Both the position numbers and the translations under genes were made by a program. Of a stretch of 64,000 nt of DNA, positions 1 to 52,980 are shown piece by piece. Each line of letters starts with the position of its first letter. The first letter of the stretch is position 1. The DNA lies in NCBI GenBank assembly GCA_964016885.1, contig OZ024742.1:275280001-275344000 (forward strand), written 5' to 3'. The notes under the pieces are model-generated. The model was not told where the DNA came from. It did no database searches and saw nothing but the letters and a program-made list of their open reading frames with translations. Origin of the DNA: Eledone cirrhosa (Eukaryota).

Positions 1-101
1 GCTGCAGGTAGTGGCTTGATATTCAATCCAACGGACTTTCCAGTTAACCAACATCAATGACTGAGATTCAAGGAATAACAATAACAATAATAATAATAAT
101 A
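1..101 (+). mobile_element. 3' UTR and (TAA)n tail of an R4/Dong family-B copy that begins upstream of the window
   Basis: Nearly identical to the 3' UTRs at 2386-2460, 4462-4535 and 6553-6627 (gctgcaggtagtggcttgatattc...gagattcaagga), followed by AAC/AAT repeats. Confidence 0.85.
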
Positions 102-1939
102 AGAGAAGTTAACATTAATTGTGGAATTTTTCAGGGTGACTCTTTATCACCGCTTTTATTCTGCATCGCACTTATACCATTAAGTAAAATGCTCAATGAA
201 ACAAAACATGGATATAGAGTCTATGACAAAACCATTAATCACCTGTTCTACATGGATGACCTGAAACTATTTGCAAAAAATGATGAACAATTGCAAGGGC
301 TATTATCCACTGTGAAGCAGTTCAGTGATGACATTAAAATGGAGTTTGGACTGGATAAATGCGCCAAAGCAACGTTCACCAGAGGAAAGCTGCTGAAGAG
401 TTCAGACATTAATCTTGATCGGGGGAACGTGATAAGAGAGCTTGATCAAGAACAAACTTACAAATATCTAGGTGTTTGTGAAGGAGACGGAATCAAGCAC
501 TCGACAATGAGGGAAAGGATAAGGAAGGAATGTTACCGCAGAGTCAGAGCAATCTTAAGAACGGAATTGAATGCAAGGAATAGGATCGATGCCATAAACA
601 CGCTTGCCATACCAGTAGTAACCTACAGTTACAATGTCATCAACTGGTCAAGCACAGAGATCCGTAGGCTCGATACAAAAATCCGAAAATTCTTAACCAT
701 GCACAGAATGCATCACCCTAAGGCAGACATAGATAGAATATATCTCCCTAGGAAAGAAGGAGGACGTGGGTTAATCCAGTTAGACATTGCGTTGAAAACT
801 GCAACAATTGGATTATCCACATATCTAAGGTAATCACATGATTGGATGATCAAACTCGTTTTGAAACACGAAAGCACCAAAAGATCATATTCCATTACAA
901 AAGATGCACAAAGATACAGTAATGGACTACAAATTTCAGAAGTCCCATTTACTGCTGAAATGGAAAACACAGAAAAAGCAAAGCAGGTAAAAGTAACTGC
1001 AAAGAAAGAACTGCTACAGAAACTGGCTAAGAAATGGCAAGAAAAGCCTCTGTATGGAAAATACCCAGAGCGAGCTAACAATCCTGATGTTGACAAAACT
1101 TTAACCCATCAGTGGTTGGCATCCTCTGGACTGAAATCGGAGACTGAAGGACTGATTATATCCGCACAAGATCAGTGTCTGCCAACAAAAAATTACCAAG
1201 CCAACATAATAAAAAATGGGTGCAGCCCATTATGCCGTGTATGCAAAAAACAATCAGAGACCATTGACCATATAATTTCAATGCGCAGTCCTATAGCTCC
1301 AACCGAATACCTAAACAGGCATGACAGAGCTGCACAATACATACATTGGATAATGTGTAAGCATTTTGACCTGCCCCATCAAAAGAATTGGTGGGAGCAT
1401 CAACCACCTCCCATACTTGAAAAAGATCACATCTCAATCTTGTGGAACTTTAGCATCCAAACAGACCGAAAAATAGATGCAAATAGACCTGATATAATAT
1501 TGAAGGACTTTCAAAGGAGGGTATGCCTGCTAATTGATATGTCTGTTCCAATAGACAAGAATGTATCTATAAAAACATTTGAAAAATTGAGCAAGTATAA
1601 GGACCTGGAGATAGAAATTGGAAAAATGTGGAAATTGAGAACTAAAACAATACCAGTGGTTGTAGGCGCTCTGGGAATGATACCTAAGGGGTCTAACGAC
1701 TACTTATCGCAAATCCCAGGAAACCCGCGTATAGGAGAAATACAAAAGATAGTACTAATGGGAACTGCCCATATACTAAGGAAGATCCTGTCAATATAAG
1801 TACATCACAAGTCTAAACACTAAGGATGCATGTGTGAATATGTGTGTTCTTTCTTGAACATGGCGGATCTTGTTGTCTCTTGAGGTCACTGGTTGTGACT
1901 TGGTGATAACTCGTATAAACATAAAGCAAGATAAATGCA

Positions 1940-1967
<28 letters not shown>
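102..1967 (+). mobile_element. 5'-truncated R4/Dong-clade non-LTR retrotransposon, family A
   Basis: RT motifs GIFQGDSLSP and FYMDDLKL, thumb DRIYLPRKEGGRGL, Zn knuckle CRVC..ETIDH, RHD, RLE motif RPDIIL..IDMS..K..KY, GALG; short 3' UTR; flanked by (TAA)n. Confidence 0.9.
103..1799 (+). pseudogene. RT-RLE polyprotein fragment with one in-frame stop at 831-833
   Basis: ORFs 57..833 and 846..1799 are in the same frame, separated by TAA plus 4 codons; the N-terminal MTEIQGITI.. is borrowed from the upstream 3' UTR and tail. Confidence 0.85.
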
Positions 1968-1970
<3 letters not shown>

Positions 1971-2467
1971 TGGTATGAGCATAGGCCAGAGGCGGTGATG
2001 GAGAACAATCAGGTGAAGGTGCTGTGGGATTTTAGGATACAGACGGACAAAAAACTGGAACACAATAGACCTGACCTGGTGGTTGTGGACAAAGAAAAAA
2101 GATCGTGTCTGATTGTGGATGTGGCCTGCCCGTTCGACACGAGAGTGCAAGAGAAGGAGAGGGAGAAAATTAACCGATACCAGGACCTAAAGTGGGAGGT
2201 GAAAAGGATTTGGAACTGCCATGAAGTCAAAGTGATCCCGATTGTCATAGGCGCACTGGGGACTATCTCCAAAAGTTTCCAGGGATGGTTAAATAAAATC
2301 GGCCCCTTCACGCTTTTTGGAACGCTTCAAAAGGCATGCTTGATTGGAACAGCAAGAACCCTCCGATACGTCCTGAATATCTGAGGCTGCAGGTAGTGGC
2401 TTGATATTCAATCCAACGGACTTTCCAGTTAACCAACATCAGTGACTGAGATTCAAGGAATAACAAC

Positions 2468-2515
<48 letters not shown>
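1968..2515 (+). mobile_element. Short 5'-truncated R4/Dong family-B copy (RLE domain, 3' UTR, TAA tail)
   Basis: KWYEHRP..LWDF..RPDLVVVDK..IVDVACP..EKINRYQDL..GALG, stop at 2384, conserved 3' UTR, (TAA)n. Confidence 0.9.
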
Positions 2516-4549
2516 TCTGGAGGCTGATGACATCAAGAACAAACAAATGAAGGAATTGTTAAGAACTGAATACATTCGGAGAATAAGGAGCGTATTGAAG
2601 TCACATCTGAACAGCAGAAATGCCATAAGCGCAGTAAATTCCCGAGCTGTGTCTATTATTAGGTACAGTGCGGGAATTCTGAGATGGAATGTTGCTGAAC
2701 AAAAAGAAATGGATAGGAAAACTAGGAAGCTATTGACTATCTACAACATGTTCCACAAGAGCAGTGATGTCGATAGACTCTACTTAAGGAGATCTGAGGG
2801 TGGAAGAGGTCTTATCAGCATAGAGGACTGTGTTCAGATGGAGAAAAACAACCTACACAAATACGTGACTGATAGTAAGGAGCCAATGCTCAGAACTGTA
2901 CTGAAGGAGGGGACAATAGGCCAGGGGATGTCCAAGGAGGAAATAACATCACGGAGAAAGAGCAGCCTTCAGGAAAAATCCCTTCATAGTACCTTCTTTG
3001 AGAAAACTGAATTTAGAGATCCACAGACATGGAACTGGTTGAGAAGAGGAGACCTTAAAAAGGCTACAGAAGGAATGTTAATGGCTGCGCAGGAGCAAGC
3101 CCTCAAAACGAAGTGGTTGAAACACCATATTTACAAGGAGGAGGCTAGCCCACTGTGCAGGATCTGTGGAGAGAGAGAGGAGACTGTGGCTCACATTGTA
3201 TCCGAGTGTAAACACCTAGCCCAGACCTACTATAAGGGCTGGAGACATGATGTTATGGGCAGGGTGATCCACTGGCACCTCTGCAAAGTAAACAATTTAC
3301 CACATTCTGAGAAATGGTATGAGCATAAGCCAGAGGCGGTGATAGAGAACGATCAGGTGAAGGTGCTGTGGGATTTTAGGATACAGACGGACAAGAAACT
3401 GGAACACAATAGACCTGACGTGTGGTTGTGGACAAAGAAAAAAGATCGTGTCTGATTGTGGATGTGGCCTGCCCATTCGACACGAGAGTGCAAGAGAAGG
3501 AGAGGGAGAAAATTAACCGATACCAGGACTTAAAGTGGGTCTTATCAGCATAGATGACTGTGTTCAGATGGAGAAAAACAACCTATACAAATACGTGACC
3601 TATAGTAAGGAGCCAATGCTCAGAACTGTACTGAAGGAGGGGACAGTAGGCCAGGGGATGTCCAAGGAGGAAATAACATCAAGGAGGAAGAGCAGCCTTA
3701 AGGGAAAATCCCTTCATAGTACCTTCTTTGAGAAAACTGAATTTAGATATCCACAGACATGGAACTGGTTGAGAAGAGGAGACCTCAAAAAGGCTACAGA
3801 AGGAATGCTAATGGCTGCGCAGGAGCAGGCCCTCAAAACGAAGTGGTTGAAGCACCATATTTACAAGGAGGAGGCTAGCCCACTGTGCAGGATCTGTGGA
3901 GAGAGAGAGAGGAGACTGTGGCTCACATTGTGTCCGAGTGTAAACACCTAGCCCAGACCCACAATAAGGGCTGGAGACATGATGTGATGGGCAGGGTGAT
4001 CCACTGGCACCTGTGCAAAGTAAACAATTTACCACATTCTGAAAAATGGTATGAGCATAGGCCAGAGGCGGTGATGGAGAACAATCAGGTGAAGGTGCTG
4101 TGGGATTTTAGGATACAGACGGACAAAAAACTGGAACACAATAGACCTGACCTGGTGGTTGTGGACAAAGAAAAAAGATCGTGTCTGATTGTGGATGTGG
4201 CCTGCCCGTTCGACACGAGAGTGCAAGAGAAGGAGAGGGAGAAAAGTAACCGATACCAGGACCTAAAGTGGGAGGTGAAAAGGATTTGGAACTGCCATGA
4301 AGTCAAAGTGATCCCGATTGTCATAGGCGCACTGGGGACTATCTCCAAAAGTTTCCAGGGATGGTTAAAGAAAATCGGCCCCTTCACGCTTTTTGGAACG
4401 CTTCAAAAGGCATGCTTGCTTGGAACAGCAAGAACCCTCCGATACGTCCTGAATATCTGAGGCTGCAGGTAGTGGCTTGATATTCATTCCAACGGACTTT
4501 CCAGTTAACCAACATCAATGACTGAGATTCAAGGAATAACAACAACAAC

Positions 4550-4606
<57 letters not shown>
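2516..4606 (+). mobile_element. Composite R4/Dong family-B unit 1 (two overlapping truncated segments fused at about 3537)
   Basis: Thumb-CCHC-RLE segment 2516-3537 fused directly to a second segment restarting at GLISI(D/E)DC; frameshifts near 3420 and 3910; TAA tail. Confidence 0.88.
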
Positions 4607-6640
4607 TCTGGAGGCTGATGACATCAAGAACAAACAAATGAAGGAATTGTTAAGAACTGAATACATTCGGAGAATAAGGAGCGTATTGAAGTCACATCTG
4701 AACAGCAGAAATGCCATAAGCGCAGTAAATTCCCGAGCTGTGTCTATTATTAGGTACAGTGCGGGAATTCTGAGATGGAATGTTGCTGAACAAAAAGAAA
4801 TGGATAGGAAAACTAGGAAGCTATTGACTATCTACAACATGTTCCACAAGAGCAGTGATGTCGATAGACTCTACTTAAGGAGATCTGAGGGTGGAAGAGG
4901 TCTTATCAGCATAGAGGACTGTGTTCAGATGGAGAAAAACAACCTACACAAATACGTGACTGATAGTAAGGAGCCAATGCTCAGAACTGTACTGAAGGAG
5001 GGGACAATAGGCCAGGGGATGTCCAAGGAGGAAATAACATCACGGAGAAAGAGCAGCCTTCAGGAAAAATCCCTTCATAGTACCTTCTTTGAGAAAACTG
5101 AATTTAGAGATCCACAGACATGGAACTGGTTGAGAAGAGGAGACCTTAAAAAGGCTACAGAAGGAATGTTAATGGCTGCGCAGGAGCAAGCCCTCAAAAC
5201 GAAGTGGTTGAAACACCATATTTACAAGGAGGAGGCTAGCCCACTGTGCAGGATCTGTGGAGAGAGAGAGGAGACTGTGGCTCACATTGTATCCGAGTGT
5301 AAACACCTAGCCCAGACCTACTATAAGGGCTGGAGACATGATGTTATGGGCAGGGTGATCCACTGGCACCTCTGCAAAGTAAACAATTTACCACATTCTG
5401 AGAAATGGTATGAGCATAAGCCAGAGGCGGTGATAGAGAACGATCAGGTGAAGGTGCTGTGGGATTTTAGGATACAGACGGACAAGAAACTGGAACACAA
5501 TAGACCTGACGTGTGGTTGTGGACAAAGAAAAAAGATCGTGTCTGATTGTGGATGTGGCCTGCCCATTCGACACGAGAGTGCAAGAGAAGGAGAGGGAGA
5601 AAATTAACCGATACCAGGACTTAAAGTGGGTCTTATCAGCATAGAGGACTGTGTTCAGATGGAGAAAAACAACCTATACAAATACGTGACCTATAGTAAG
5701 GAGCCAATGCTCAGAACTGTACTGAAGGAGGGGACAGTAGGCCAGGGGATGTCCAAGGAGGAAATAACATCAAGGAGGAAGAGCAGCCTTAAGGGAAAAT
5801 CCCTTCATAGTACCTTCTTTGAGAAAACTGAATTTAGATATCCACAGACATGGAACTGGTTGAGAAGAGGAGACCTCAAAAAGGCTACAGAAGGAATGCT
5901 AATGGCTGCGCAGGAGCAGGCCCTCAAAACGAAGTGGTTGAAGCACCATATTTACAAGGAGGAGGCTAGCCCACTGTGCAGGATCTGTGGAGAGAGAGAG
6001 AGGAGACTGTGGCTCACATTGTGTCCGAGTGTAAACACCTAGCCCAGACCCACTATAAGGGCTGGAGACATGATGTGATGGGCAGGGTGATCCACTGGCA
6101 CCTGTGCAAAGTAAACAATTTACCACATTCTGAAAAATGGTATGAGCATAGGCCAGAGGCGGTGATGGAGAACAATCAGGTGAAGGTGCTGTGGGATTTT
6201 AGGATACAGACGGACAAAAAACTGGAACACAATAGACCTGACCTGGTGGTTGTGGACAAAGAAAAAAGATCGTGTCTGATTGTGGATGTGGCCTGCCCGT
6301 TCGACACGAGAGTGCAAGAGAAGGAGAGGGAGAAAAGTAACCGATACCAGGACCTAAAGTGGGAGGTGAAAAGGATTTGGAACTGCCATGAAGTCAAAGT
6401 GATCCCGATTGTCATAGGCGCACTGGGGACTATCTCCAAAAGTTTCCAGGGATGGTTAAAGAAAATCGGCCCCTTCACGCTTTTTGGAACGCTTCAAAAG
6501 GCATGCTTGCTTGGAACAGCAAGAACCCTCCGATACGTCCTGAATATCTGAGGCTGCAGGTAGTGGCTTGATATTCATTCCAACGGACTTTCCAGTTAAC
6601 CAACATCAATGACTGAGATTCAAGGAATAACAACAACAAC

Positions 6641-6690
<50 letters not shown>
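4607..6690 (+). mobile_element. Composite R4/Dong family-B unit 2 (2091-bp tandem duplicate of unit 1)
   Basis: Same 5' junction, internal fusion and frameshifts; ORF starts offset by exactly 2091 (3535/5626, 3885/5976); only a few substitutions. Confidence 0.88.
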
Positions 6691-6691
<1 letters not shown>

Positions 6692-8971
6692 CTGATTTGA
6701 GTATCACAGTTGAAACTCTTAAGGGGCAGGCCAAAAAATTAACCAACTGGAAATCACCAGGCCCAGATGGTGTGCAGGGGTATTGGATTAAAAATATAAC
6801 ATCCCTCCACCCGAAACTGACAACCATGTTCAATGACTGCTTGATGTCAGGTGAGGTACCAGAGTGGTTGACAAAAGGTACCACAGTTCTGATAATGAAA
6901 GACCGAATCAAGGGTAATGATGTTACCAACTATAGACCTATCACATGTCTGTCCGTAATGTGAAAACTGTTGACAAGCATTATGTCTGAGGAAATCTACC
7001 ATCACCTCCACACAAACAACTTGTTACCGGACGAACAGAAAGGATGCCGAAAGAAGTCACGTGGTACAAAGGACCAGTTACTTATTGATAAGATGGTAAT
7101 GAGGAATTGCAAGAGGAGACACATTTGTCTTGCCATGGGATGGATTTAGACTAGAAAAAGGCATTTGACATGGTGCCTCATTCTTGGATCACCAAAAGTC
7201 TTGAGATCTTCAAGGTGGCAGATAACATCAGACAGTTGTTGGGCAAAAGTATGTAGTCCTGGGAAACAGAGTTAACATCAACTGGAGAATCCTTGGGAAG
7301 CGTGAAGATCAAGAGATGTATCTTCCAGGGAGATAGTCTGTCCCCTCTGTTGTTTGTCCTTGCCCTGATCCCCCTGACCAGTGTACTGCGAAAAGTGAAA
7401 GCAGGATACAGGTTGGGAAAGGGAGCGCTTACCATCAATCACCTCCTCTTCATGGACGATCTTAAGCTCTTCGGGAAGAGTGAGAAGGAGTTGGATGTGC
7501 TTGTTGACACTGTCCGTATTTTCAGCAATGATATATGTATGCAATTTGGTATTAGTAAGTGTGGAGTCATTGTGATGAAGGGGGGTAAGTTGAGCAGAAG
7601 TAACGGAATCCAGGTACCAACGGGTGAGATGATAAAGGAAATTGACTCTGAAGAAGGATACAAGTATTTGGGCGTTCTGGAGGCTGATGACATCAAGAAC
7701 AAAAAAATGAAGGAATTGATAAGTACTGAATACATTCGGAGAGTAAAGAGCGTATTACAATCACATCTGAACAGTAGGAATGCCATAGTGCAGTAAATTC
7801 CCGAGCGGTGTCTATTATTAGGTAGAGTGCGAGAATTCTGAGATGGAATGTTGCTGAACAGATAGAAATGGATAGGAAGACTAGGAAGCTATTGACTATC
7901 TACAACATGTTCCACAAGAGGAGTGATGTCGATAGACTCTACTTAAGGAGATCTGAGGGTGGAAGAGGTCTTATCAGCATAGAGGACTGTGTTCAGATGG
8001 AGAAAAACAACCTACACAAATACGTGACTGATAGTAAGGAGCCAATGCTCAGAACTGTACTGAAGGAGGGGACAATAGGCCAGGGGATGTCCAAGGAGGA
8101 AATAACATCAAGGAGAAAGAGCAGACTTCAGGAAAAATCCCTTCATAGTACCTTCTTTGAGAAAACTGAATTTAGAGATCCACAGACATGGAACTGGTTG
8201 AAAAGAGGAGACCTTAAAAAGGCTACAGAAGGAATGTTAATGGCTGCGCAGGAGCAGGCCCTCAAAACGAAGTGGTTGAAACACCATATTTACAAGGAGA
8301 AGGCTAGCCCACTGTGCAGGATTTGTGGAGAGAGAGAGGAGACTGTGGCTCACATTTTATCCGAGTGTAAACACCTAGCCCAGACTCACTATAAGGGCTG
8401 GATACATGATGTGATGGGCAGGTTGATCCACTGGCACCTATGCAAAGTAAACAATTTACCACATTCTGAGAAATGGTATGAGCATAAGCCAGAGGCGGTG
8501 ATAGAAAACGATCAGGTGAAGGTGCTGTGGGAATTTAGGATACAGACGGACAAGAAACTGGAACACAATAGACCTGACCTGGTGGTTGTGGACAAAGAAA
8601 AAAGATCGTGCCTGATTGTGGATGTGGCCTGCTCATTCGACACGAGAGTGCAAGAGAAGGAGAGGGAGAAAATTAACCGATACCAGGACTTAAAGTGGGA
8701 GGTAAAAAGGATTTGGAATTGCCAAAGTGATCCCGATTGTCATAGGCGCACTAGGGACTATTTCAAAAAGTTTCCAGGGATAGTTAAAGAAAATTGGCCC
8801 CTTCACGCTTTTTGGAACGCTTCAAAAGGCATGCTTGCTGGGAACAGCAAGAACCCTCCGATACGTCCTGAATATCTGAGGCTGCAGGTAGTGGCTTGAT
8901 ATTCATTTCAACAAACTTTCCAGTTAACTAACATCAATGACTGAGACTCAAAGAGTAATAACAACAACAAC

Positions 8972-9020
<49 letters not shown>
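6691..9020 (+). mobile_element. Longer, decayed R4/Dong family-B copy (RT through RLE)
   Basis: NWKSPGPDG, NYRPITCL, IFQGDSLSP, FMDDLKL, YKYLG, CRICGE..H..C, RPDL; several stops and frameshifts; 3' UTR plus (AAC)n(TAA)n. Confidence 0.9.
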
Positions 9021-9022
<2 letters not shown>

Positions 9023-9854
9023 CGATCTGCAGACTGAAGGACTGATTATATCAGCACAAGATCATTGTCTGCCAACAAAAAATTACCAAGCCAACATAAT
9101 AAAAAATGGATGCAGCCTATTATGCCGTGTATGTAAAAAACAACCAGTGACCATTGACCATATAATTTCAATGTGCAGTCCTATAGCTCCAACCGAATAC
9201 CTAAACAGGCATGACAGAGCTGCACAATACATACATTGGATAATGTGTAAGCATTTGACCTGCCCCATCAAAAGAATTGGTGGGAGCATCAACCACCTCC
9301 CATACTTGAAAAAGATCACATCTCAATCTTGTGGAACTTTAGCATCCAAACAGACCGAAAAATATATGCAAATAGACCTGATATAATATTGAAGGACTTT
9401 AAAAAGAGGGTATGCCTGCTAATTGATATGTCCGTTCCAATAGACAAGAATATATCTATAAAAACATTTGAAAAATTGAGCAAGTATAAGGACCTGGAGA
9501 TAGAAATTGGAAAAATGTGGAAATTGAGAACTAAAACAATACCAGTCGTTGTAGGCGCTCTAGGAATGATACCTAAGGGGTCTAATGATTACTTATCGCA
9601 AATCCCAGGAAACCCGCGTATAGGAGAAATACAAAAGATAGTACTAATGGGAACTGCCCTTATACTAAGGAAGATTCTGTCAATATAAGTACATCACAAG
9701 TCTAAACACCTAAAGATGCATGTGTGAGTATGTATGTTCTTTCTTGAACATGGCGGACCTTGTTGTCTCTTGAGGTCACTGGTTGTGACTTGGTGATAAC
9801 TCGTATGAACATAAAGAAAGATAAATGCAGCTGTAATAATAACAATAATAATGA
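9021..9854 (+). mobile_element. Short 5'-truncated R4/Dong family-A copy
   Basis: Highly similar to 1141-1938 (TEGLIISAQD..RPDIIL..GALG..RKILSI and 3' UTR); frameshift near 9255. Confidence 0.9.
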
Positions 9855-23708: not shown

Positions 23709-24345
23709 AAAGTAATTCCGTCGGAAAGGTCCAGGAAAAAAGAGGGCTCTATGTAGGTTACAGAGCTTAATAGCTGTGTAATAAACAACATAAGATAATT
23801 ATTTCATTTACCAGCGGTTTCTTGAAAGCAAACAAATCTGCTTTCATTCATCAGAATGAAAACATCCTGGTGTTTTTATTGATGGGGAATTGAAAACAAA
23901 AATATGAGGAATATGAAAGAGAGGCTGAAGGAAGAAGAGAAAAAGATAATAAATATATAAGTATATAAACACACACACACACACACACATACATATATGT
24001 TTATATGTATATATACACATAAATATACATACACATACACATAAATACACAAACACACACACATATATATATATAAAATTATATAAATAAATATATAAAT
24101 ATAACTAAACGACAATGTGCAGTCACATCACTATACAAAGACAAAATACATATACAAGAAATCAATAAATAAAAGTAAAAAATAATGTCAAATTTAAAAA
24201 ATTTAAAAATAAAGAAATAAAAATAAAAAATAAAAATATAAAATTATCAAGTTGACAGCGATACGAAAGAGGAAAAAAAACACAAATAAAAATAAATAAA
24301 CAAACACACGTGGTAAGCAAAAGCACAAAATAAATATATATATAT
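23705..24345 (-). mobile_element. Non-coding PLE-type 3' fragment with hammerhead
   Basis: Hammerhead plus downstream GCTC..GAGC hairpin; low-complexity 3'-UTR-like body. Confidence 0.55.
23802..23861 (-). ncRNA. Type I hammerhead ribozyme motif
   Basis: tttcatt-CTGATGA-a-tgaaagca-gatttgtt-tgctttca-a-GAAA-cc-gct-gg-TA-aatgaaa (7-bp stem I, 8-bp stem II). Confidence 0.8.
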
Positions 24346-24392
24346 ATACGATATTAAATGAATGGAAACTATATTTATAAAATCATATTTAT

Positions 24393-24452
24393 TTCATTAT
24401 ATATATTTCAGGGATATCATATTAAAAATATGGTATGCCTTCATCAGACAAA
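24393..24452 (-). ncRNA. Minimal hammerhead in the 3' pseudo-LTR
   Basis: tttgt-CTGATGA-agg...cct-GAAA-tatata-TA-atgaa. Confidence 0.75.
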
Positions 24453-25860
24453 ATACAATATAAACAGTCTTATAAATAGATAGATTTGACATACCTTACA
24501 CTTCAACTTCCATTTAAAAAGTTGATTTGGTAGTGAAAAATGTTAGGGACAGTTATAGAAAAAAAAAAAAAAAGAAAAGAAAGAAAGAAAGAAAACGAAG
24601 AAAAAGAAGAAATGCATGCAACGAAAAACCGAGAGAGATAGATATAGAGAGATAGATAGAGAGAAGAAATTCATGTAAAGAAAAAAACAGAGAGAGATAG
24701 ATAGAGAGAGAAAAAAAGAGGGAGATAGATAGAGAGAGAGAGAGAGAAAAGAGAGAGAGAGAGAAAAATAGAGAGAGATAGATATAGATAAAGATAGAGA
24801 GAGAGAAAAATAGGTAGTTGGGCACCAGTTGAATGACGTATCAATGATATATTTATTTATTTATTTAGTTATAGTATTAAGGTAGAGAGAGATATATGTG
24901 GTTATGAGAGAAAACAGCCGTTACATAGAGAGAAAAGAAAAATATCCAGAGATAAACGAGGCAGATTTAAAACATTATGTTTCATCAATCTAAAATATGA
25001 ATTCGTATGAATTAGGTATTATAATGTAAATATCAGTATTCATGAATGAGACACGTATCAATAATGTGTGAAAAAAATAATGATCATATGTCTAGTTTAA
25101 AATTCCTAGGTTTATAATCAGAACTGAGATAAAACTTTAAAAAAAATTGAAATACATAAGTATATATGCACTTTCATGAAAAAAGAAAAGAAAATAGAAG
25201 GTTATCCCAGATTCGACATTATAGACATCCATGTGAATTTACGTGATCAACTCTGCAAATTCTTATTTCACATGAAAACATTCTCATTGTGCTATAAAAA
25301 TTCTAGTATACATATATGTGTACATACACACAAATATATATAGAATCTACATTAATTATAAGAATAATATTCTTGCCTTTACTCTACATGATTATCGTTC
25401 AAGCATAGAATAGACAACAGATATCAATATATCAATAAAAATATTAAAAATATTAAAAATATTAAAAAATATTAAAAATATTAAAAAATATTAAAAAATA
25501 TAATTAAAACGCCAAGAAAATTCCCAGAGTATCTCGGGCCGTAATAAACACAGAAATCTACCCTTCAAATTTATTTGACAATATATTGCCAAGTTCATTA
25601 TAAGCATCAGAATCAAAAGCAAACAAAACCAAAATTATTCACCAAATCCTGTCTAGTAGAAATCATTCCAAAAGTTTAGGATACCCATTTGATCTACAGA
25701 TGGTCTTATATTTATTATAGAAGTTTATCTAGTGTAAAATTTATTCGATATATTTGGAGCATCATCTTTTAGGGTAGTTTAATTATTCATGAAGAATGTT
25801 TAAAAAAAAGAAATCGAAAGATTTATCGGCGAGTTTCATAAATAATCTTAAGTAAATATA

Positions 25861-28083
25861 CTACATTTTAAATTTATATTTATATTTAAAAGTTGAGTTC
25901 AATCTATGTCTGCAGCAACTGAATAAATTTGTCCGTAAATTAAGGGAATTTTTAGATTTTAGTATAAAGAATATCTCCTCCGCGCAGAGGTCACATGTCT
26001 CAGAAGATGAATTAAAAGGAATCCCTCTTGAGACTATATTCCAAGCCGTCGAATATCCAACGTTATCATGCTTAAGTTGCCAGAGTAAGCCTGATAGTGA
26101 TGTTGAAGATTTTTTGCTTGGATCTGTGAAAGAATTCTTGTGGTTATTATAGCGAAGTTTAAATTCTGTCGAGGTGGAACCAACATAGTTAAAAGAATTT
26201 AAGTCCGTTTTAACATTACAGTTGTATATTATATTTTTAACTAAGCAATTGTTATTTAACGGACATTTAGATCTATCTCTACAGTTACATTTTTTTACTT
26301 GGATATTATTTAGGCTATTATCGGTATTTTGGCTAGGTTTTAAATTCCTATTATTTATTCTATTAATATTTTGTGCTAAATTTTTGGTGGATGAGTAAGT
26401 TAATTTTATAGTATGTCTATTGAAAATTGAGTGATACTTATGTGTTCTAGGGAAGCGATTATCAAGAGCATTAAAAAATAGTTTAGCGATGTGGGTTTTA
26501 ATGTTTAGTGAGAAAGGGGGGGCAAACCATATTATGTTTCTAGTTCTATTTCTTTTTTGGCTTTTGGAATTATTGTAATGCTTTCTATTATAGTTGTTAA
26601 AGTTGTTGCCGTAATTAAAATTGTTGTTATTTTGGTTAGTTTGTCTATTATTATCTATGTACATAATTTTATCACTCTATCCAGCTCTAGCTAACGCTTC
26701 ATTGTAATACTGGGCTTTTTCGTCGAAAATCTTTTTATTAGATGAGATTCTAGAGATACGTTTTTGAACAGAGTTCACTATAGTATTTTTAACAGATCTG
26801 GGGTGATTAGAGTTAAAACAAACATAGTTCAAGTTTTCATTCAACTTGTGAAATGGATAGTGAAGACATGTGTTGAGATTTAATGTTACATCTAGGAAAT
26901 TGACTATTCTATGGTTATTCTCAATTTCTATTTTTAGATTAAAGTAATTAAAAAATTGTGTAATTTGTTTTCTTTTTCTATTTAGTTCAGAGTTATTATT
27001 TTCAATAAGTAAAAGCATGTCATCTCTATATAATCCTCCGGTAACACCGGGTATTTTCCTATGCAGCGAATTAATTATAAATAGGCCCACAAGGTCTGTT
27101 ACCTGAGCTGAGTCGGATGATCCCATAGTAATGTCGAAATTGTTATCTCTATCTGCTCTGGTCCATAGTTGGTTATTAAATTCTATCAATGTTTTCCTAG
27201 CCGATAATATAACGTGCATTTCATTGCTAGTTAGGTCTGTATCTTTGAATGCGTAATTTAGTGCCTTATTTAGTAGATTAGGGGTAATAGATGAATAATA
27301 GTTAGCAATATCTAGTTGAATAAATTTATTATTATTGTTATATTTAATTTCTTTAAACCACTCAATCACCTCTCCAGTTCCCTTCCACAAGCTCAAGTTA
27401 GGTAAACAATTCAAGTTTTCAATTTGCTGTATCACCCTGTCTAGAATGTTTTTGCTAAGTTTACCCAGGTCAGATTTTGATGGTACAATCAATCTGACTG
27501 GCAGGTCATTTTAAAAATTTCTTTTGTGATCTTTCATATTGATCTTGGGTTTCCTGGGCACGAAAGGTTGTGTTTTGTTCTCAATTTCCAACTCATGCAT
27601 TATACAAGATGCCTCAACATTCATTTTCTCAAGTTCGGCCTTATCTGCTATCTTGTACTTTTTCCTCAGTTCTTTCAGTATGAGGCCATTATACATGTCT
27701 TTTTGCACTCCATAGAGGTTGTTGGTCTTGTCCGATTTCACCAAGATCTTCTCAGTTCTCTCTAAGCTCTCAATATTATCCTTAATGCCTTTCAGATATT
27801 CCTGGCCTTTGAAGTTTCTCTTGAATTTGACTCCTTGTATGATAGAAATTATATCGTTTTCAAAGTCAATTAAAAGTTTGTTGGGGGGGGGATTTTTTTT
27901 AGATTTGAAAACTTTGTCTAAGTCCGAGAGATTTTCATTTATATTAGATTTATCAAAGTGGAATGCACGCCACCTGATTCTCCTTATAAAAGAGTCCGAT
28001 TTATCTATTAATTGTTTAATAAAGTCTTTGTTTCTAGGTAGAGGTATGTCCTTTAAAGAGGAAGAAATCTTAAAGAATTCCAT
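25861..28083 (-). pseudogene. PLE RT + C-terminal GIY-YIG endonuclease (probably Hydra-type group); 741 codons with two in-frame stops
   Basis: KSDKT, LDIANYYSSI, FDITMGS, GLYRDD, FLDVTL, SNHP, WFAPPFS, CNCR..CPL..C, NIIY..YVGST..FKLRYNNH, CDLC..E, CRH; the three track ORFs are in frame. Confidence 0.9.
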
Positions 28084-28264
28084 TTTTTCAGTTATAATAT
28101 AAAGCGCTCAACAGTATTGGAGCAAGATATATGCAAAGTTTTATTTAAATTGTTGGGTTACAACGAGTAAATATTTATAACTGATATAAAAGCACTCAAC
28201 AAGTATTTGGAGTATATTTACGATATTAAATAAATGGAAACTATATTTATAAAATCATATTTAT

Positions 28265-28324
28265 TTCATTATATATATTTCAGGGATATCATATTAAAAA
28301 TATGGTATGCCTTCATCAGACAAA
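28265..28324 (-). ncRNA. Minimal hammerhead in the 5' pseudo-LTR
   Basis: Identical to 24393-24452. Confidence 0.75.
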
Positions 28325-29820
28325 ATACAATATAAACAGTCTTATAAATAGATAGATTTGACATACCTTACACTTCAACTTCCATTTAAAAAGTTGATTT
28401 GGTAGTGAAAAATGTTAGGGACAGTTATAGAAAAAAAGAAAAGAAAGAAAGAAAGAAAACGAAGAAAAAGAAGAAATGCATGCAACGAAAAACCGAGAGA
28501 GATAGATATAGAGAGATAGATAGAGAGAAGAAATTCATGTAAAGAAAAAAACAGAGAGAGAGATAGATAGAGAGAGAAAAAAAGAGGGAGATAAATAGAT
28601 AGAGAGAGAGAGAGAAAAGAGAGAGAGAGAGAAAAATAGAGAGAGAGATATAGATAAAGATAGAGAGAGAAAAATAGGTAGTTGGGCACCAGTTGAATGA
28701 CGTATCAATGATATATTTATTAATTTATTTATTTATTTAGTTATAGTATTAAGGTAGAGAGTTATAGTATTAAGGTAGAGAGTTTTAATATTTTTTAATA
28801 TTTTTAATATTTTTTAATATTTTTAATATTTTTAATATTTTTATTGATATATTGATATCTGTTGTCTATTCTATGCTTGAACGATAATCATGTAGAGTAA
28901 AGGCAAGAATATTATTCTTATAATTAATGTAGATTCTATATATATTTGTGTGTATGTACACATATATGTATACTAGAATTTTTATAGCACAATGAGAATG
29001 TTTTCATGTGAAATAAGAATTTGCAGAGTTGATCACGTAAATTCACATGGATGTCTATAATGTCGAATCTGGGATAACCTTCTATTTTCTTTTCTTTTTT
29101 CATGAAAGTGCATATATACTTATGTATTTCAATTTTTTTTAAAGTTTTATCTCAGTTCTGATTATAAACCTAGGAATTTTAAACTAGACATATGATCATT
29201 ATTTTTTTCACACATTATTGATACGTGTCTCATTCATGAATACTGATATTTACATTATAATACCTAATTCATACGAATTCATATTTTAGATTGATGAAAC
29301 ATAATGTTTTAAATCTGCCTCGTTTATCTCTGGATATTTTTCTTTTCTCTCTATGTAACGGCTGTTTTCTCTCATAACCACATATATCTCTCTCTACCTT
29401 AATACTATAACTAAATAAATAAATAAATATATCATTGATACGTCATTCAACTGGTGCCCAACTACCTATTTTTCTCTCTCTCTATCTTTATCTATATCTA
29501 TCTCTCTCTATTTTCTCTCTCTCTCTCTTTTCTCTCTCTCTCTCTCTATCTCCCTCTTTTTTTCTCTCTCTATCTATCTCTCTCTGTTTTTTTCTTTACA
29601 TGAATTTCTTCTCTCTATCTATCTCTCTATATCTATCTCTCTCGGTTTTTCGTTGCATGCATTTCTTCTTTTTCTTCGTTTTCTTTCTTTCTTTCTTTTC
29701 TTTTTCTTTTTTTTCTATAACTGTCCCTAACATTTTTCACTACCAAATCAACTTTTTAAATGGAAGTTGAAGTGTAAGGTATGTCAAATCTATCTATTTA
29801 TAAGACTGTTTATATTGTAT

Positions 29821-29880
29821 TTTGTCTGATGAAGGCATACCATATTTTTAATATGATATCCCTGAAATATATATAATGAA
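29821..29880 (+). ncRNA. Minimal hammerhead in the inverted pseudo-LTR
   Basis: tttgtCTGATGAagg...cctGAAAtatataTAatgaa read directly on +. Confidence 0.75.
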
Positions 29881-30289
29881 ATAAATATGATTTTATAAAT
29901 ATAGTTTCCATTTATTTAATATCGTAAATATACTCCAAATACTTGTTGAGTGCTTTTATATCAGTTATAAATATTTACTCGTTGTAACCCAACAATTTAA
30001 ATAAAACTTTGCATATATATATATATATATATATACATGTGTATATATATATGTATATATATATATATATATACGCATATATACACACACATATAAATAC
30101 ATATATACACACACATACATAAACAAATACAGACACACACATACATACACATACACATACATAGAAATATATACACACAAGTATATATACAATACAAACA
30201 TATACACACATAAGTATATACATACAAATACATATACACACACATATATATACATATATATATATACACACACATATACACACATATAC

Positions 30290-34722: not shown

Positions 34723-39846
<5,124 letters not shown>

Positions 39847-39937
39847 TATATTATCTTTATTTATTCTTTATATGAAATATTGATTGCATTTTCCTGTATC
39901 TCATGTCTGTTATTTTTCCTGAGAAAATACCTATATA

Positions 39938-41802
39938 CAGTGGCGTAGCTAGGGTAAATGGCGCCCAGGGCAAGCATCAAAATAGAAATCGTCAACATTA
40001 TTTGAATGCTGATTCGCAAATTGGGAAAAACACATTCATCGCCGTATTGTATGATGAATTGGAGAAGTGCCCCCGGCTTTAAAATTGGGTCAGCTGTCCT
40101 AGTAGCCAGCAAAGATCGGCAGTCCAAGATTTCCTCGTACAATTGCTCTCCGTCGATGTCGGAGTTGTATAGTTCCGCAAGACTGTTGCACCTTTGTTTA
40201 AGGACAAGGATATCAGGAGCAGCCAAATAAAACAGATAGTTGACATCAAGAAGAAAGCCAAAACTTGAGTCGGTTTCCTTAAGTCTAATAAACCGTTCTT
40301 CCATTTCTGTTTGAAGACGATTGAGTAAACTTTGCATTGCTCTCTCTATCTCTTTTCTGGCAGCCACCTCGAAGTCCTCAGTAATTTCGGTATTGGTTTG
40401 TCGTCTGCCTCGCCTCCTCGGAAAATCGACATTCCATTTCTGGCAGAGGTCGAAGCCCATTTCAAGAGACTCGTGGATTAAGGATGTTCCTTCTTCTTTA
40501 AAATAAAGTTGAAGGGCTCCTATATCAGCTGCAGCATCGTGAAAATTCATTCTTGGATTTTGAAGTCTCTTTTGAACCCGTGCAATTCGTGAGAGAATCG
40601 TGTTCCAGAATCAAATCAAGTTCAGGAATTCATAACTCAGTATCCGATTATGGAGATTAGTGGCATCACTTCTACTCTCGCATGTCTCTGTTTCATCATC
40701 ACTAATTTTTTCGAGAACTTGAACAATCAGCGTCAAATAATTCGCCACCGGTCTGACAGCGGTACATCTAGCACTCCACCTCGTGTCGGAAGGATATTTA
40801 ACAACCACTGGAGCAACTTCTTTAAGGCCTTTCCATCGTCGTGTTGAACGAGAAAAAAAGTTGTATAACGAGTCAATGCAACTGAAAAAGTTCATCATAG
40901 CAAAATTGTTTTGGGCTGCATGAAGACCAGCCAGATTAAGTGAATGGTTATCGCAATTAACGAAGTGAATCAAATTATTCTTTTCTCTCATTCTCTGCTG
41001 AACCCCACTGCGGTGCCCAGCCATTATGGCAGCATTGTCATAGCAATGCGATCGACAGTTCTGCAGTGGTAGGTCATCTTTTTCTAGCTCTTTCACGATT
41101 CTTTCAACAAGGCTTGCGACATCTTTTTTGATTACTTGAATGAATCCAAGAAAAGATTCCCTCACAACGACCGTCTTCATGTTGAAATCAACATCGACAT
41201 ATCGCACAACTTTTGACAGTTGTTCTCGGTGCGCCTGGTCAGGGGTCGAATCAATCAGCACACCATAGTATCTTGCATTTGGGATACGATTTAGTAAATT
41301 CTGACGAACTGTTGGTATTATAGAAGAAAACATTGAACAATCTAAACTGAAGTCAAATTGAATTCCTAATAGAAGCTATCCGATCCTATCTGGCCATTTA
41401 GATTATGATACCGTTTCTATACGTCTTATGTACCAGTTGTAAAAGACAAACTACTCTGTTTTGTAAACCAGCTTCATAATTATATTTATGTTGTATTGGT
41501 CATTGCAATGCATTGCTAAAAATAGCGCCTGCGTGTCCACCAGTTGCACGTCCCTTTAGTCAGTGTGTGTGTGTGGGGGGGGGGGGGGGGGGGTGAAGTC
41601 AAATCAGACATCTGCTCTGTTTAGTGCACTAGACATGGCGTGGAAGTCGGCTATCAAGAAATTACATGCTTCATTTTTGGCTTATATTTTTAAAAATGAT
41701 AAAAACGACATAGATGTAAATCGATCTAGGTCGAAATTGTGCCCCCCTAAATATGGCGTCCGTGGCATGTGCTCTGCTTGCCACACTCTAGCTACGCCAC
41801 TG
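39938..41802 (-). mobile_element. Internally deleted hAT DNA transposon (Tip100/ZMYM1-like transposase)
   Basis: 15-bp TIR cagtggcgtagctag / ctagctacgccactg; 8-bp TSD cctatata / cctatatg; transposase motifs DSTPD..EQ..RYV, ESFLGF, YDNAA.M.G, C..HSLNL, TRWS, FPNL. Confidence 0.9.
39990..41333 (-). pseudogene. hAT transposase fragment
   Basis: ORFs 40611..41333 and 39861..40550 are in frame across one TGA; N- and C-termini missing. Confidence 0.85.
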
Positions 41803-48800: not shown

Positions 48801-49172
48801 TGGCTGCCAACTCGTTTTCGAGTACGGCCACTACTTTATATCCATGTAGGAGAACCCCTACCGGTGCGCTGAACGAGTGTGACTTTTTAGTCCAGCCAGC
48901 GACTTGAAAACTCTGGTACAAACACTACACTTGTGACAATTATTGACACATAGTGCTGGGCCCATGGTACCATGTGACGACAAGTGCAGAGAGATCTCCA
49001 GATATAAAGCAATGCCTGTGCCGTGAAGCTTTTATAGTGAGCAAAAGCACTGCACAAACCCAGTCCCACTCTCTTAACCAAGATGATATTTACCAAAAAG
49101 AAGAACAAGTCAACATCATTGGATACCTTAGCCTTTGTCAAGGCAGAATTCTAGAAGGAAAACTCTGATATA
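48798..49172. mobile_element. Second copy of the 30992-31601 repeat with an inverted terminal segment
   Basis: 48798-49125 matches 30995-31322; 49126-49172 is the reverse complement of about 31341-31391. Confidence 0.75.
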
Positions 49173-49189
49173 TACAGGAACGATCGACT

Positions 49190-49393
49190 TTCGTCAAATC
49201 GGACCGAGGGAACAATGTTTCCGTTGGTCTTTCCAATTGCTAATACTATCTATCGGTCGCAACTCCAGGTAGAAGGAGCAACGTGAAATAAAGTGTCTTG
49301 CTCAAGGACATAACGCATCACCTGGTCCAGGAATCGAACTCACAACCTTACGATTGCGAATCCAATTCTCTAACCACTCAGCCACACGCCTTC
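49190..49393 (-). mobile_element. tRNA-derived SINE with CORE-like segment
   Basis: A box tggctgagtggtt, B box gagttcgattcc, then gtccttgagcaagacactt. Confidence 0.75.
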
Positions 49394-49465: not shown

Positions 49466-49947
<482 letters not shown>

Positions 49948-49949
49948 CT

Positions 49950-50086
49950 TTAAATATATACAAGAAGGATTAATCATTTTTTAAAAGGTAATATTTGAAG
50001 ATCTAGTTAAACTTTAATTAGTTACCTACCTAGCTGTGTGTGATTACAGACTTTACAAATTATCCCCTGTAATTGTTTCATATATT

Positions 50087-50145
<59 letters not shown>

Positions 50146-50476
50146 GATAAATCTACCAAGAGTTTACGGTAGTGTCCAATCCGTATGGAGAACTCAATGT
50201 AGTCCGGATATCATGGAAAGAAGAGATGCAATGAAAAATCACTTTCGGTGAAAGATAAACGGAATACAGAGTCATTTCTGAAGACGGCATATATGTGTGT
50301 TTGGTATGTATATTTAATCTTGATAGTTTGTATAATTTTGTATAATTTTGTACATAGATCTGTTGAATATGCATGCCAATTCTAACACATATATATCCTA
50401 GAAACGATCGTTAAATAATGAACTTTTTTTGTTTAATATAAGGAACTGTTTCATTGTTTTATTCATTATTTTTTTA

Positions 50477-50532
<56 letters not shown>

Positions 50533-51568
50533 AATCAATTTCTAGTTGATATAAAATGCTCAGATCTATTCAGTGGAATCTTTGAGCTTACTCTACAGTG
50601 GGTATGGCGCATGTCTCGGACATGACACCTTTCATTTAATTTAACTAAATTTATTTCGGATAGATAAACGGCTTCTTATCTGTAGAGCTAAATCGGTTGA
50701 AAGGACTTGGCTGCTATTTATAGCTGTCGACCTCACTATTCACGCCAATGGGAGGACGCTAGCATGTTGTTAGTAGTTTTAAAATTGCAGCACGTGCGAA
50801 GGGTCACTCGCAGGTTTGCATTTGATGCGTAAACACAGACAGTTATTTCTTCCTCCTTGCTGATGATCAAAGATTTAACTACTGTGACTTTACGGATTTT
50901 TAGTGCAATATATTTCTTTAATGAAATATATACAGGAGGATTAATCTTTTTTTAAAAGGTAATATTTGAAGATCTAGTTAAACTTTAATTATCTACCTAC
51001 CTAGCTGTGTGTGATTAAACATTTTACAAATTATCCCCTGTGATTATTTCATGTGTTTATTTTAAATATATATATATATATCAATCAATTTCTAGTTGAT
51101 ATAAAATGCTCGGATCCATTCAGTGGAATCTTTGAGCTTACTCTACAGTGGGTATGGCGCATGTCTCGGACATGACACCTTTCATTTAATTTAACTAAAT
51201 TTATTTCGGATATATAAACGGCTCCTTATATGTAGCGCTAAATCGGTTGAAAGGATTTGGCTGCTATTTATAGCTGTCGACCTCACTATTCACGCCAATG
51301 GGAGGACGCTAGCATGTTGTTAGTAGTTTTAGAATTGCAGGACGTGCGAAGGGTCACTCGCAGGTTTGCATTTGATGCGTAAACACAGACAGTTATTTCT
51401 TCCTCCTTGCTGATGATCTAAGATTTAATTACTGTGACTTTACGGATTTTTAGTGCAATATCTTTCTTTAATGAAATATATACAAGGAGGATTAATCATT
51501 TTTTTAAAGGTAATATTTGAAGATCTAGTTAAACTTTAATTAATTACCTACCTAGCTGTGTGTGATTA
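49950..51568 (+). mobile_element. Tandem array of a 550-nt non-coding monomer, each unit with a hammerhead (candidate non-LTR retrozyme)
   Basis: Units in register at 50531/51081; hammerheads at 50851-50940 and 51401-51491: tcctccttg-CTGATGA...GAAA-tata-TA-caaggagga. Confidence 0.82.
50272..50418 (+). ncRNA. Hammerhead motif with long stem II, in an element (about 50143-50480) nested in the (TA)n of the 550-nt array
   Basis: attt-CTGAAGA-..atatatgtg...cacatatat..-GAAA-cgatcg-TT-aaat. Confidence 0.6.
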
Positions 51569-51579
51569 CTGTGTGTGAT

Positions 51580-52980
51580 TACTGGAAGCTAAACGCGCAG
51601 TTAACAGCGCGCAAAGCCTACAGAGACCGGATTAGCGAATTAGTTAGCGGGTCTTGACGGGCAATAGTCAACAACAAATGGTGGTTCGCCCTGAAAAGAG
51701 CGATTAGATTGGAATCCATTAGGTTTAGTAAGGCGTTAGCAATAGAGAGAAATAGAGCAGAAGGAGAACTAGTTAGAAAATTAGACGAGGCGCTTAGTAA
51801 AGGCATCGCAACCGACGCGCTTGCGGCGAAATTGCCCCTCGACCAATTCTTCAATGCAAAGAATGAAGGATGCGTTGTCACAGCTAGGGCGCGTGCTCTC
51901 AAAAGGGACGAAAGCCATTCGATGGGCCCGAATGTCGGAGGCACGTCATGGGAACAAAGCCACGATCCGGTCATTGGAGGACCCGAGCAAATGTGTTTGG
52001 CGTTTCAGCGGCATTTCACTCGGCTGTTAGGTGGCAGTAGTGGGTCGTATCGCAGAGTGGACATTAGCACTTACCTCGACGGACTGCCGCAGCTCACAAC
52101 CACTGAAGCGGAGTGTTGCTAAAGGCCGATAACAACCGCTGAAATACAGATATCAATGACTGACTGCACAATGGGTAAATCGCCTGGTTTGGATGGTCTG
52201 CCATACGAGATTTATGTACCCATGACACACTTGTTCGGCAAAAAAAACATCTTGGTGGACGTTTACTGCAACTTGCAGCAGAACGTGACAATTCCTGGCT
52301 CTGTCAGGCGAGGAGCGGTTGCGCTGCTGAGAAAGGACCCAAACAAGCGGGAAAAGATATATAATTTCAGGCCCATAAGATTTTTACCCAAGTGGTAGCA
52401 AAGAGATAGGCACTTGTCGTCGGTCGTTTGGTAGGAGTGGCGCATACATGCACCATACCAGAAAGATCCCTCCACCGCATGTGATACATCGTGGAGACGG
52501 TAGCTAACGAAGATGGCACGGGTGGACACTTGATCTATTTAGATCAGTCAAAACCTTTCGATATGGTCGACCATCGTTGTCTGGCGGCGTTACTCAGGAC
52601 AACCGGCTTTGGGCCCGTCTTCAGAGGCTGGATCGCTGCGATGCACAGCGACATCTGCTCTGTTGTGAGAGTGAACGGTCACCTTTCGGAACCGTTCAAC
52701 ATCATGCGGTCAGCCACGGATGTCCCCTCTCGTCCCTGTTGTACGTATTGACTCTCGAGCCATTACTGCGCAAACTGGAGACATTGAGGGGCGTCCCGCG
52801 CGAACTGGGATGCGGGAGAACCGTGTCAGCTTAACCCGACATGTCACCGTACTGGTGTCGAATGCCAAACATATCGAGGTGATCGGCACTACACTATGAG
52901 AATATGAGGCGGTGACAGGAGCAATGACTAACCAGGAAAAGTCGGTGGGCATGCGGCTCGGCACCTGGAAAGGCAGGTCT
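51580..52980 (+). mobile_element. Decayed internal ORF2 fragment of the same Tx1/L1-type family as 9855-13406
   Basis: YWKLNA, WWFALKRAI, GKSPGLDGLPYE, LDQSKPFD, GCPLS..LEPLLRKL. Confidence 0.85.

Follow-up and report, generated by a model that had tools for sequence, protein, structure and literature searches.

The window analysed here, a stretch of 64,000 nucleotides of Eledone cirrhosa (GCA_964016885.1, contig OZ024742.1, positions 275,280,001 to 275,344,000), contains a tandem array of about 2.2 units, which at about 1190 nt is the longest arm seen among the loci that we examined (Table 1). Unit positions are counted from 50933, the letter directly after a predicted ribozyme cut. The units in this array lie 550 nt apart and are about 96% alike, with 13 differences among 403 compared letters. 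The original prediction of two near-identical units with a 550-nt period followed by a partial third was confirmed by this alignment, and so was the absence of an open reading frame: the longest stop-free frame in a unit dimer spans only 46 aa, and the longest ATG-initiated frame across the whole array only 73 aa. The (TA)n tract at the end of the 5' piece has expanded as far as 50142 and is, as had also been proposed, invaded by another hammerhead element.

Table 1. Features of the array and of related elements, in window coordinates
Feature	Position	Strand	Remarks
Near-complete Penelope-like element	24300-30000		RT and GIY-YIG-like frames 25861-28107 (-), broken by stops
Second, decayed Penelope-like element	35520-39900		Asn-rich insert; hammerheads 39572(-), 39710(+)
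Palindromic hammerhead stub of another element	49662-49861		In the same (TA)n tract as the array; one short and one long arm
Array, 5' piece	49941-50110	+	Last ~9-25 nt of ribozyme and unit positions 1 to ~146; ends in internal (TA)n
Nested insertion	50143-50482		Inside internal (TA)n of first unit; two inverted arms
Nested insertion, inverted "tail" arm	50143-50274		
Nested insertion, + arm	50274-50482	+	Core 50278, GAAA 50401, predicted cut after 50412
Rest of first unit	50513-50932	+	Unit positions ~131-550
First type I hammerhead	50851-50940	+	Core 50860-50866, GCAA 50905-50908, 9-bp stem III, predicted cut after 50932
Full 550-nt unit	50933-51482	+	Spans one cut site to the next; 34% GC; no ORF
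Family 3'-end site A (unit 171)	51098-51103	+	Internal ATATA; first-unit equivalent at 50553
Family 3'-end site B (unit 284)	51210-51216	+	Internal ATATATA
Second type I hammerhead	51401-51491	+	Core 51410-51416, GCAA 51455-51458, predicted cut after 51482
Partial third unit	51483-51568	+	Unit positions 1-86

The third unit lacks its normal 3' end and carries a 13-bp duplication and a LINE fragment in its place. The remainder of this unit was found neither downstream in the window nor in the next 10 kb. At 51584 and at L182:1276, two independent copies of the family adjoin LINEs of one type, with the junction at an identical position in the LINE, and the two pieces are no more than 78% alike. 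A fixed LINE start at this 3' junction is unsupported, with 30 of 30 sampled LINE copies (from another subfamily) continuing upstream, and the common junction may be a product of chance microhomology. Elsewhere, the window holds a tandem run of 5'-truncated LINE copies separated by (AAT)n (48-9688), which we take by their motifs to be R2/R4-like, a remnant at 39861-41375 (-) with presumably hAT-like transposase motifs, and what we assume to be a SINE of the octopod type (49003-49390). It is also dense in further hammerhead-like repeat families (16783, 17657, 18004, 19167, 19439, 32358, 32963, 33620, 34035, 49789 and 49801).

To describe the ribozyme at the level of the family, we extracted 83 copies and aligned 74 of them, omitting nine with deletions, chimeric ends or poor alignment. 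The family ribozyme contains two GAAA motifs, 18 nt apart. With the upstream motif as part of the core, the RNA would form a 9-bp stem III in which 96% of the cells are paired, and the A15.1-U16.1 pair appears with a probability of 0.8-0.9 in four of four copies folded. The original prediction had used the downstream motif, which leads to a palindromic TATA loop and a hammerhead that would depend on dimerisation. We rejected this reading because the same pair then has a probability of 0.0 in all four copies and because the base of stem II is left without pairs (T.T, C.A and C.A in most of the 74 rows). Furthermore, the downstream motif reads GGAA in 10 of the 74 rows, a change that is preserved as a U.G pair in the stem III formed with the upstream motif. 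The cut site is the same in both models, and both cuts initially predicted for the window thus keep their positions. The proposed 9-bp stem I is present in the second ribozyme (51401-51409/51483-51491) and is interrupted in the first by a 1-nt deletion.

An intact core is found in 53 of the 74 aligned copies. At core pair 3/8, 37 rows have CG and 29 have UA (a C3-G8/U3-A8 compensatory change), one pair in stem I is UA in 39 and CG in 26, and one in stem II is CG in 52 and UA in 10, although these covariations correspond to about three events on the family tree and not to 74 independent rows. U3-A8 cores are known from the hammerheads of Penelope-like elements (PLEs; PMC4209133). The 106-nt ribozyme region of the window folds better than 200 of 200 shuffled sequences (z -3.15). 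Stem II is weak, with base-pair probabilities of at most 0.004 in three of four copies folded in isolation. Searches against Rfam returned no match at the gathering threshold in the window, and none at E≤10 on an intact family copy. Three of the 83 copies (L032, L048 and L059), which belong to different subfamilies, have lost 23 nt between the GAAA motifs, a deletion that reduces the 9-bp stem III to the minimal palindromic form of PLEs. According to the alignment, the family carries a predicted type I hammerhead that was retained across subfamilies, and we would expect intact copies to self-cleave. As a measure of how such predictions may fare, only one of nine predicted dimers cleaved in a test with Xenopus sequences, according to a recent preprint (10.64898/2026.07.22.740005).

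The two ribozymes in the window differ from this family pattern. In both units the upstream motif reads GCAA, with C at 50906 and at 51456, where the family has GAAA; this is an A13C change in the core. Among 32 matches to the young subfamily genome-wide, 30 read GAAA, and the two that read GCAA are the window units themselves. Besides its deletion in stem I, the first ribozyme shows a T>A change in stem II. In the second, stem III (51458-51466/51473-51481) contains one mismatch, and the base of stem II is a U.U juxtaposition. An A13C change is known to abolish hammerhead cleavage. A13 belongs to the consensus core (PMC3088659), and a literature search for A13C together with hammerhead cleavage returned no paper. 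The U.U base is present in an active, cleaving axolotl retrozyme (PMC7229834) and would not pass a strict hammerhead filter (PMC3088659). Judged by the core mutation, the ribozymes of the window copy are likely dead, and since both units carry this private change, the locus as a whole is likely dead as well. Two consecutive intact ribozymes, the mark of an "active" retrozyme copy, are absent here. The ranking of this array as the strongest retrozyme candidate fails for the same reason. The window units share five letters, A13C and four others, that are absent from six near relatives, and both units therefore derive from one already-mutated monomer, either through an uncut template or through later local duplication or conversion.

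The array is one member of a large dispersed family. A 22-mer of the unit has 2005 exact matches genome-wide (control: 0), a 26-mer spanning the cut has 619, and a 16-mer of the young-subfamily core has 40. A similarity search with the unit gave at least 109 matches on nine contigs, with 40 scored of 2483 candidates. Three sequencing runs whose library type is not recorded contain contigs that resemble the family; they are uninformative about its expression. For closer analysis, family segments were mapped by profile HMM in two sets of loci. Set 1 comprises the first 100 of the 2005 22-mer matches (75 loci, of which 69 gave 116 segments), and set 2 the first 100 listed of 347 matches to a different anchor (77 loci, of which 76 gave 138 segments). 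Across these 152 loci, copies consist of at most about two units, are truncated at the 5' end and sit in (TA)n. The longest arm is about 1040 nt in the two sets and about 1140 nt among the best matches, so that no long tandem array was found among the loci examined, which represent part of all matches (longest arm ~1140-1190 nt, the window included). A target-site duplication longer than 4 bp, as expected of a non-LTR retrozyme, would be hidden by the (TA)n flanks. The original designation as a satellite is therefore not tenable, and the 2005 dispersed matches also exclude a unique local duplication, the outcome that had been named in advance as fatal to a retrozyme. The assignment to the retrozyme class is supported for the family, which shows a head-to-tail repeat with a 550-nt period, 34% GC and no ORF, and a type I hammerhead with consensus core in the repeat unit of the family.

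The best evidence for how this family moves is the anatomy of its 3' ends and inverted arms, which played no part in the original account. In set 1, 52 of the 116 segments end near unit position 171, here called site A, and another 53 end near position 284, called site B. In set 2, 54 of the 138 segments end at A, 42 at B, 13 in the internal TA run and 29 elsewhere. Both sites are internal ATATA motifs, 171 and 284 nt past the cut, and (TA)n follows after 86 of 115 set 1 segments. The 113 nt between the sites make up a "tail". Many loci contain two segments in head-to-head orientation. Of 40 such pairs in set 1 (69 loci), 32 combine one A end with one B end, none has two A ends, one has two B ends and seven involve another end (p 4e-9). 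The 47 pairs in set 2 (76 loci) consist of 19 A+B, no A+A, no B+B and 28 with another end. Hence, among the pairs in which both arms end at A or B, 51 of 52 are A+B, with the reservation that alignment ends in such AT-rich sequence are uncertain by several nucleotides. A fold-back origin of the pairs was rejected: the 5' ends of the two arms lie within 60 nt of each other in 11 of 32 cases, which is not beyond chance (8.0 expected, p 0.14).

These traits, namely 5' truncation, partial tandems, a head-to-head inverted arm and two fixed 3' ends around a tail borne by one arm, are those of PLEs. In these elements, one of the inverted repeats carries a tail (PMC3846280, PMC8557442), reverse transcription begins at two internal sites that bound this tail, and the enzyme, a predicted dimer, cuts and extends both strands (PMC11167929).

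PLEs are also present in the window itself. The nested insertion in the first unit comes from a young ORF-bearing PLE, whose terminal repeat is present here as two inverted arms. Its hammerhead has an unusually long stem II, a 116-nt hairpin, and in this copy the 5' strand of stem I is reduced to about 4 nt; its two sites lie about +72 and +207 after its cut. Source copies of this insert adjoin frames of 694-824 aa, and the Atlas neighbours of these frames carry HTH_animal, RVT_1 and GIY-YIG. In our reading, RT and GIY-YIG motifs are presumably also recognisable in the PLE frames. No Pfam match was obtained for six of six PLE fragments from the window or for three of three longer ORFs, and PDB sequences gave no match to the PLE ORFs. 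The label PLE rests on the reading of motifs, on anatomy and on the Atlas neighbours. The source family comprises L123, L124 and L127 (G000:C1), many of whose terminal repeats are 100% identical, and offers a good enzyme candidate for in vitro work. The near-complete PLE in the window contains hammerheads at 24447(-), 28319(-) and 29826(+), a palindromic TA stem III, and short and long inverted ends. The layout with two different ends recurs in the nested insertion, in this 24.3-30.0 kb element and in the palindrome at 49662-49861.

An autonomous partner could not be assigned by homology, which weighs against the mobilisation model given below. Outside (TA) runs and weak AT-rich matches, the unit has no significant similarity to nine sampled PLE terminal repeats, and no homology to the unit was found in 30 loci of two PLE families of a genome that holds many more. 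A short resemblance between the unit tail and PLE tails was discarded as not significant against shuffled sequences. At L081 and L107, pieces of the family lie next to 5'-truncated fragments of a PLE RT with no (TA)n in between, through nested insertion or template switch. We dropped these junctions as evidence for a partner, as they involve two different PLE families with ends unlike those of the unit.

The 5' ends bear on the template of reverse transcription. The original prediction held that the window array begins within a few nucleotides of a cleavage site. The cut-equivalent in the 5' piece lies after 49960, and at least nine letters upstream of it (49952-49960) match the unit. Should the T run and the (TA)n in front of them represent expanded unit letters, 20-25 upstream letters are likely. 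Such letters could not come from a cut linear RNA. Other arrays mostly do not start at this position either: of 87 passes over the first cut in set 1, 75 continue beyond it, as do 104 of 112 in set 2, with the limitation that the anchor of set 2 forces many read-throughs. Genome-wide, only three matches end at the cut and continue into (TA)n as compared with the 619 that read through, counted with different patterns. A modest excess of 5' ends at the cut (-6 to +15) is present in set 1 (13 of 115, 2.8-fold, p 0.0014) and not in set 2, whose anchor forces read-through (eight ends, 1.5-fold, p 0.19).

The picture is different at the second ribozyme. Of 31 arms that reach it, 19 stop within 30 nt and 28 between -77 and +31, seven of them clustering at -61 to -77, and this pattern holds for arms started at A and at B. 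In set 1, 15 of 73 arms stop within 30 nt of the first cut and 10 of 16 within 30 nt of the second (p 0.0016). Therefore, the idea that arrays start at a cleavage site holds in so far as long arms usually stop near the second cut, and fails for the first, which most passes read through. Nine of the 31 long arms start after the second cut, four are ambiguous due to TA microhomology and 18 contain upstream letters. Three of these 18, as well as the window locus, extend far beyond the second cut.

Units within a locus agree with each other. At subfamily-diagnostic sites, tandem units show 42 disagreements versus 161 expected (52 overlaps), with no strong directional pattern, and a copy is closer to its neighbour in the locus than the median copy from elsewhere is, in 40 of 46 comparisons for tandem and in 52 of 61 for inverted neighbours. 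From this agreement we conclude that the monomer is the heritable unit. A test for shared private variants (tandem: 10 shared, 184 single; inverted: 29 and 288; control: 6 and 283) is weak and biased by the reference unit.

Two templates can account for these 5' ends. One, the route favoured by the original prediction and to which we assign slightly less than an even chance, is a 550-nt RNA closed covalently into a circle, with reverse transcription in rolling-circle mode. A circle would explain why the cut site is read through while catalysis looks conserved, and why tandem units evolve together. The unit folds well (z -4.0), and circles have been demonstrated for retrozymes of coral, mussel and axolotl (PMC7229834). 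However, a circle gives no obvious reason for passing the first ribozyme and stopping at the second, and the A13C change and four private letters shared by the window units are difficult to reconcile with it, since a dead ribozyme could not circularise its own RNA. The other template, which we consider just as probable, is a linear transcript of about 1.5 units that starts just upstream of the ribozyme or is trimmed there, similar to the pseudo-LTR of PLEs, with an inner ribozyme that remains uncut and no circle. This model accounts for the concentration of long-arm ends around the second cut, including the cluster at -61 to -77, and unprocessed RNA is the main substrate of an anole PLE (PMC11167929). 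On the other hand, a linear template does not readily provide the letters found upstream of the second cut in 18 arms, or the extension of three of them and of the window locus far beyond it. Arrays should also become shorter in each generation unless template jumps rebuild them, and conserved catalysis is less well explained.

With either template, we consider it highly probable that the window locus is a 5'-truncated copy, about 2.2 units long, of a dispersed non-coding hammerhead family, likely mobilised in trans by a PLE and likely dead. The family agrees in its features with non-LTR retrozymes, or non-autonomous PLEs; its cleavage is predicted, and mobilisation by a PLE in trans is the likely route. 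In the mechanism that we propose, an intact source copy would be transcribed across its units and ribozyme, and the ribozyme would cut the RNA, with the 9-bp stem III expected to allow it to work as a monomer. A Penelope-type protein, probably a dimer, would nick both strands of a (TA)n tract, and each of the two DNA ends would pair with a different one of the RNA's internal AUAUA sites (at 171 and 284). From both sites, reverse transcription would run past the ribozyme junction, and its two products would be joined head to head. Extension of one end only would leave a single truncated arm. The monomer would be the unit of inheritance, and copies longer than one unit would be rebuilt in each cycle; a re-ligated circle and a 1.5-mer transcript trimmed by the cut are about equally probable as their template. 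In the anole PLE, the priming sites have no homology to the target, and in vitro the element can do without its ribozyme (PMC11167929). In both respects, this element differs from the proposed model, which counts against the latter.

We also entertain a more far-reaching interpretation, although we regard it as rather unlikely in its entirety. The family could preserve the traces of how Penelope integrates in trans, with a protein dimer that would prime both strands of a (TA)n target from two fixed AUAUA sites of a single ribozyme-processed RNA, strictly one site per strand. In the passenger, a short duplication would have built the 9-bp stem III and so turned a dimer-dependent PLE hammerhead into one competent as a monomer, hence able to circularise and to live without an ORF of its own.

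It is improbable that the family is orphan debris from the terminal repeat of an autonomous PLE instead of a self-propagating non-autonomous element. Its anatomy is indeed the same as that of autonomous-element stubs in the window, and fragments of PLE ORFs often occur close to members of the family. However, the copies close on themselves at a period of about 550 nt without a coding remnant, no shared ORF junction downstream of site B was found in 76 loci, and the closed unit was kept by several successive subfamilies. Finally, a satellite or local tandem duplication whose hammerhead-like motif arose by chance is very improbable: the five letters private to both window units would allow for a local duplication or for gene conversion in the window array alone, but the thousands of dispersed copies, the fixed 3' ends, the inverted arms, the compensatory core change and the absence of long arrays from the loci seen all speak against it.

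The preferred reading, a non-autonomous retrozyme family mobilised by PLEs, has precedents. A paper from 2020 names PLEs as candidate movers of retrozymes (PMC7229834), and a preprint from 2026 argues for this link from phylogeny and calls the mechanism unresolved (10.64898/2026.07.22.740005). Since both the retrozyme class and the PLE link are in print, the gain from the present analysis lies in mechanistic detail. It describes a protein-free retrozyme family with the full insertion signature of a PLE and a replicated rule by which 51 of 52 pairs combine different fixed sites, and this rule permits a direct in vitro test of retrozyme movement. It also illustrates that reading by motif alone can settle on the incorrect GAAA and place a probably dead copy first. 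In the literature on hammerheads with Penelope, octopus or cephalopods, we found no description of the family, and no quantified pair rule, although subscription papers or supplements may hold either. A search combining Penelope-like, hammerhead and twin priming found nothing.

The family resembles the metazoan non-LTR retrozymes described by Cervera and de la Peña (2020, PMC7229834) in being non-coding and low in GC, in carrying one type I hammerhead per unit, in its thousands of copies and in coexisting with PLEs. The U.U stem II base corresponds to that of the axolotl HHR_Amex2. In contrast, metazoan retrozymes as described there have units of 170-400 nt (here 550 nt), form up to 62-mers (here 1-2-mers with inverted arms) and usually have a stem III of 1-2 bp in animals (here 9 bp); cleavage of the present family is predicted. 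The preprint by Li, Clavereau and Pollet (10.64898/2026.07.22.740005) likewise views retrozymes as non-autonomous PLE derivatives, with unit sizes of 51-972 bp that include the 550 nt found here, on the basis of vertebrate co-occurrence and pLTR homology. Here, the argument comes from insertion anatomy, and pLTR homology was not found in nine ends.

With the pLTR of PLEs (Arkhipova 2013, PMC3846280; Craig 2021, PMC8557442; Frangieh 2024, PMC11167929), the family shares 5' truncation, partial tandems, an inverted arm, a tail on one arm, (TA)n targets and two start sites past the ribozyme. It differs in the absence of an ORF and in a tail of 113 nt, as compared with the 30-40 bp given there for PLEs, and its ATATA start sites match the target, unlike those of the anole element (PMC11167929). 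With minimal PLE hammerheads (Cervera and de la Peña 2014, PMC4209133), the family ribozyme has in common that it is of type I, that a U3-A8 core variant occurs and that the 3' strand of its stem III is a TA palindrome; a long intramolecular stem III as found here is reported in that paper for fungal and protist PLEs and not for animals. Finally, the pDo500 repeat of cave crickets (PMC2837043), about 500 bp by its name, is similar in combining a conserved hammerhead with compensatory changes. That repeat is described as satellite DNA, whereas the family in E. cirrhosa is dispersed and carries the scars of PLE insertion.
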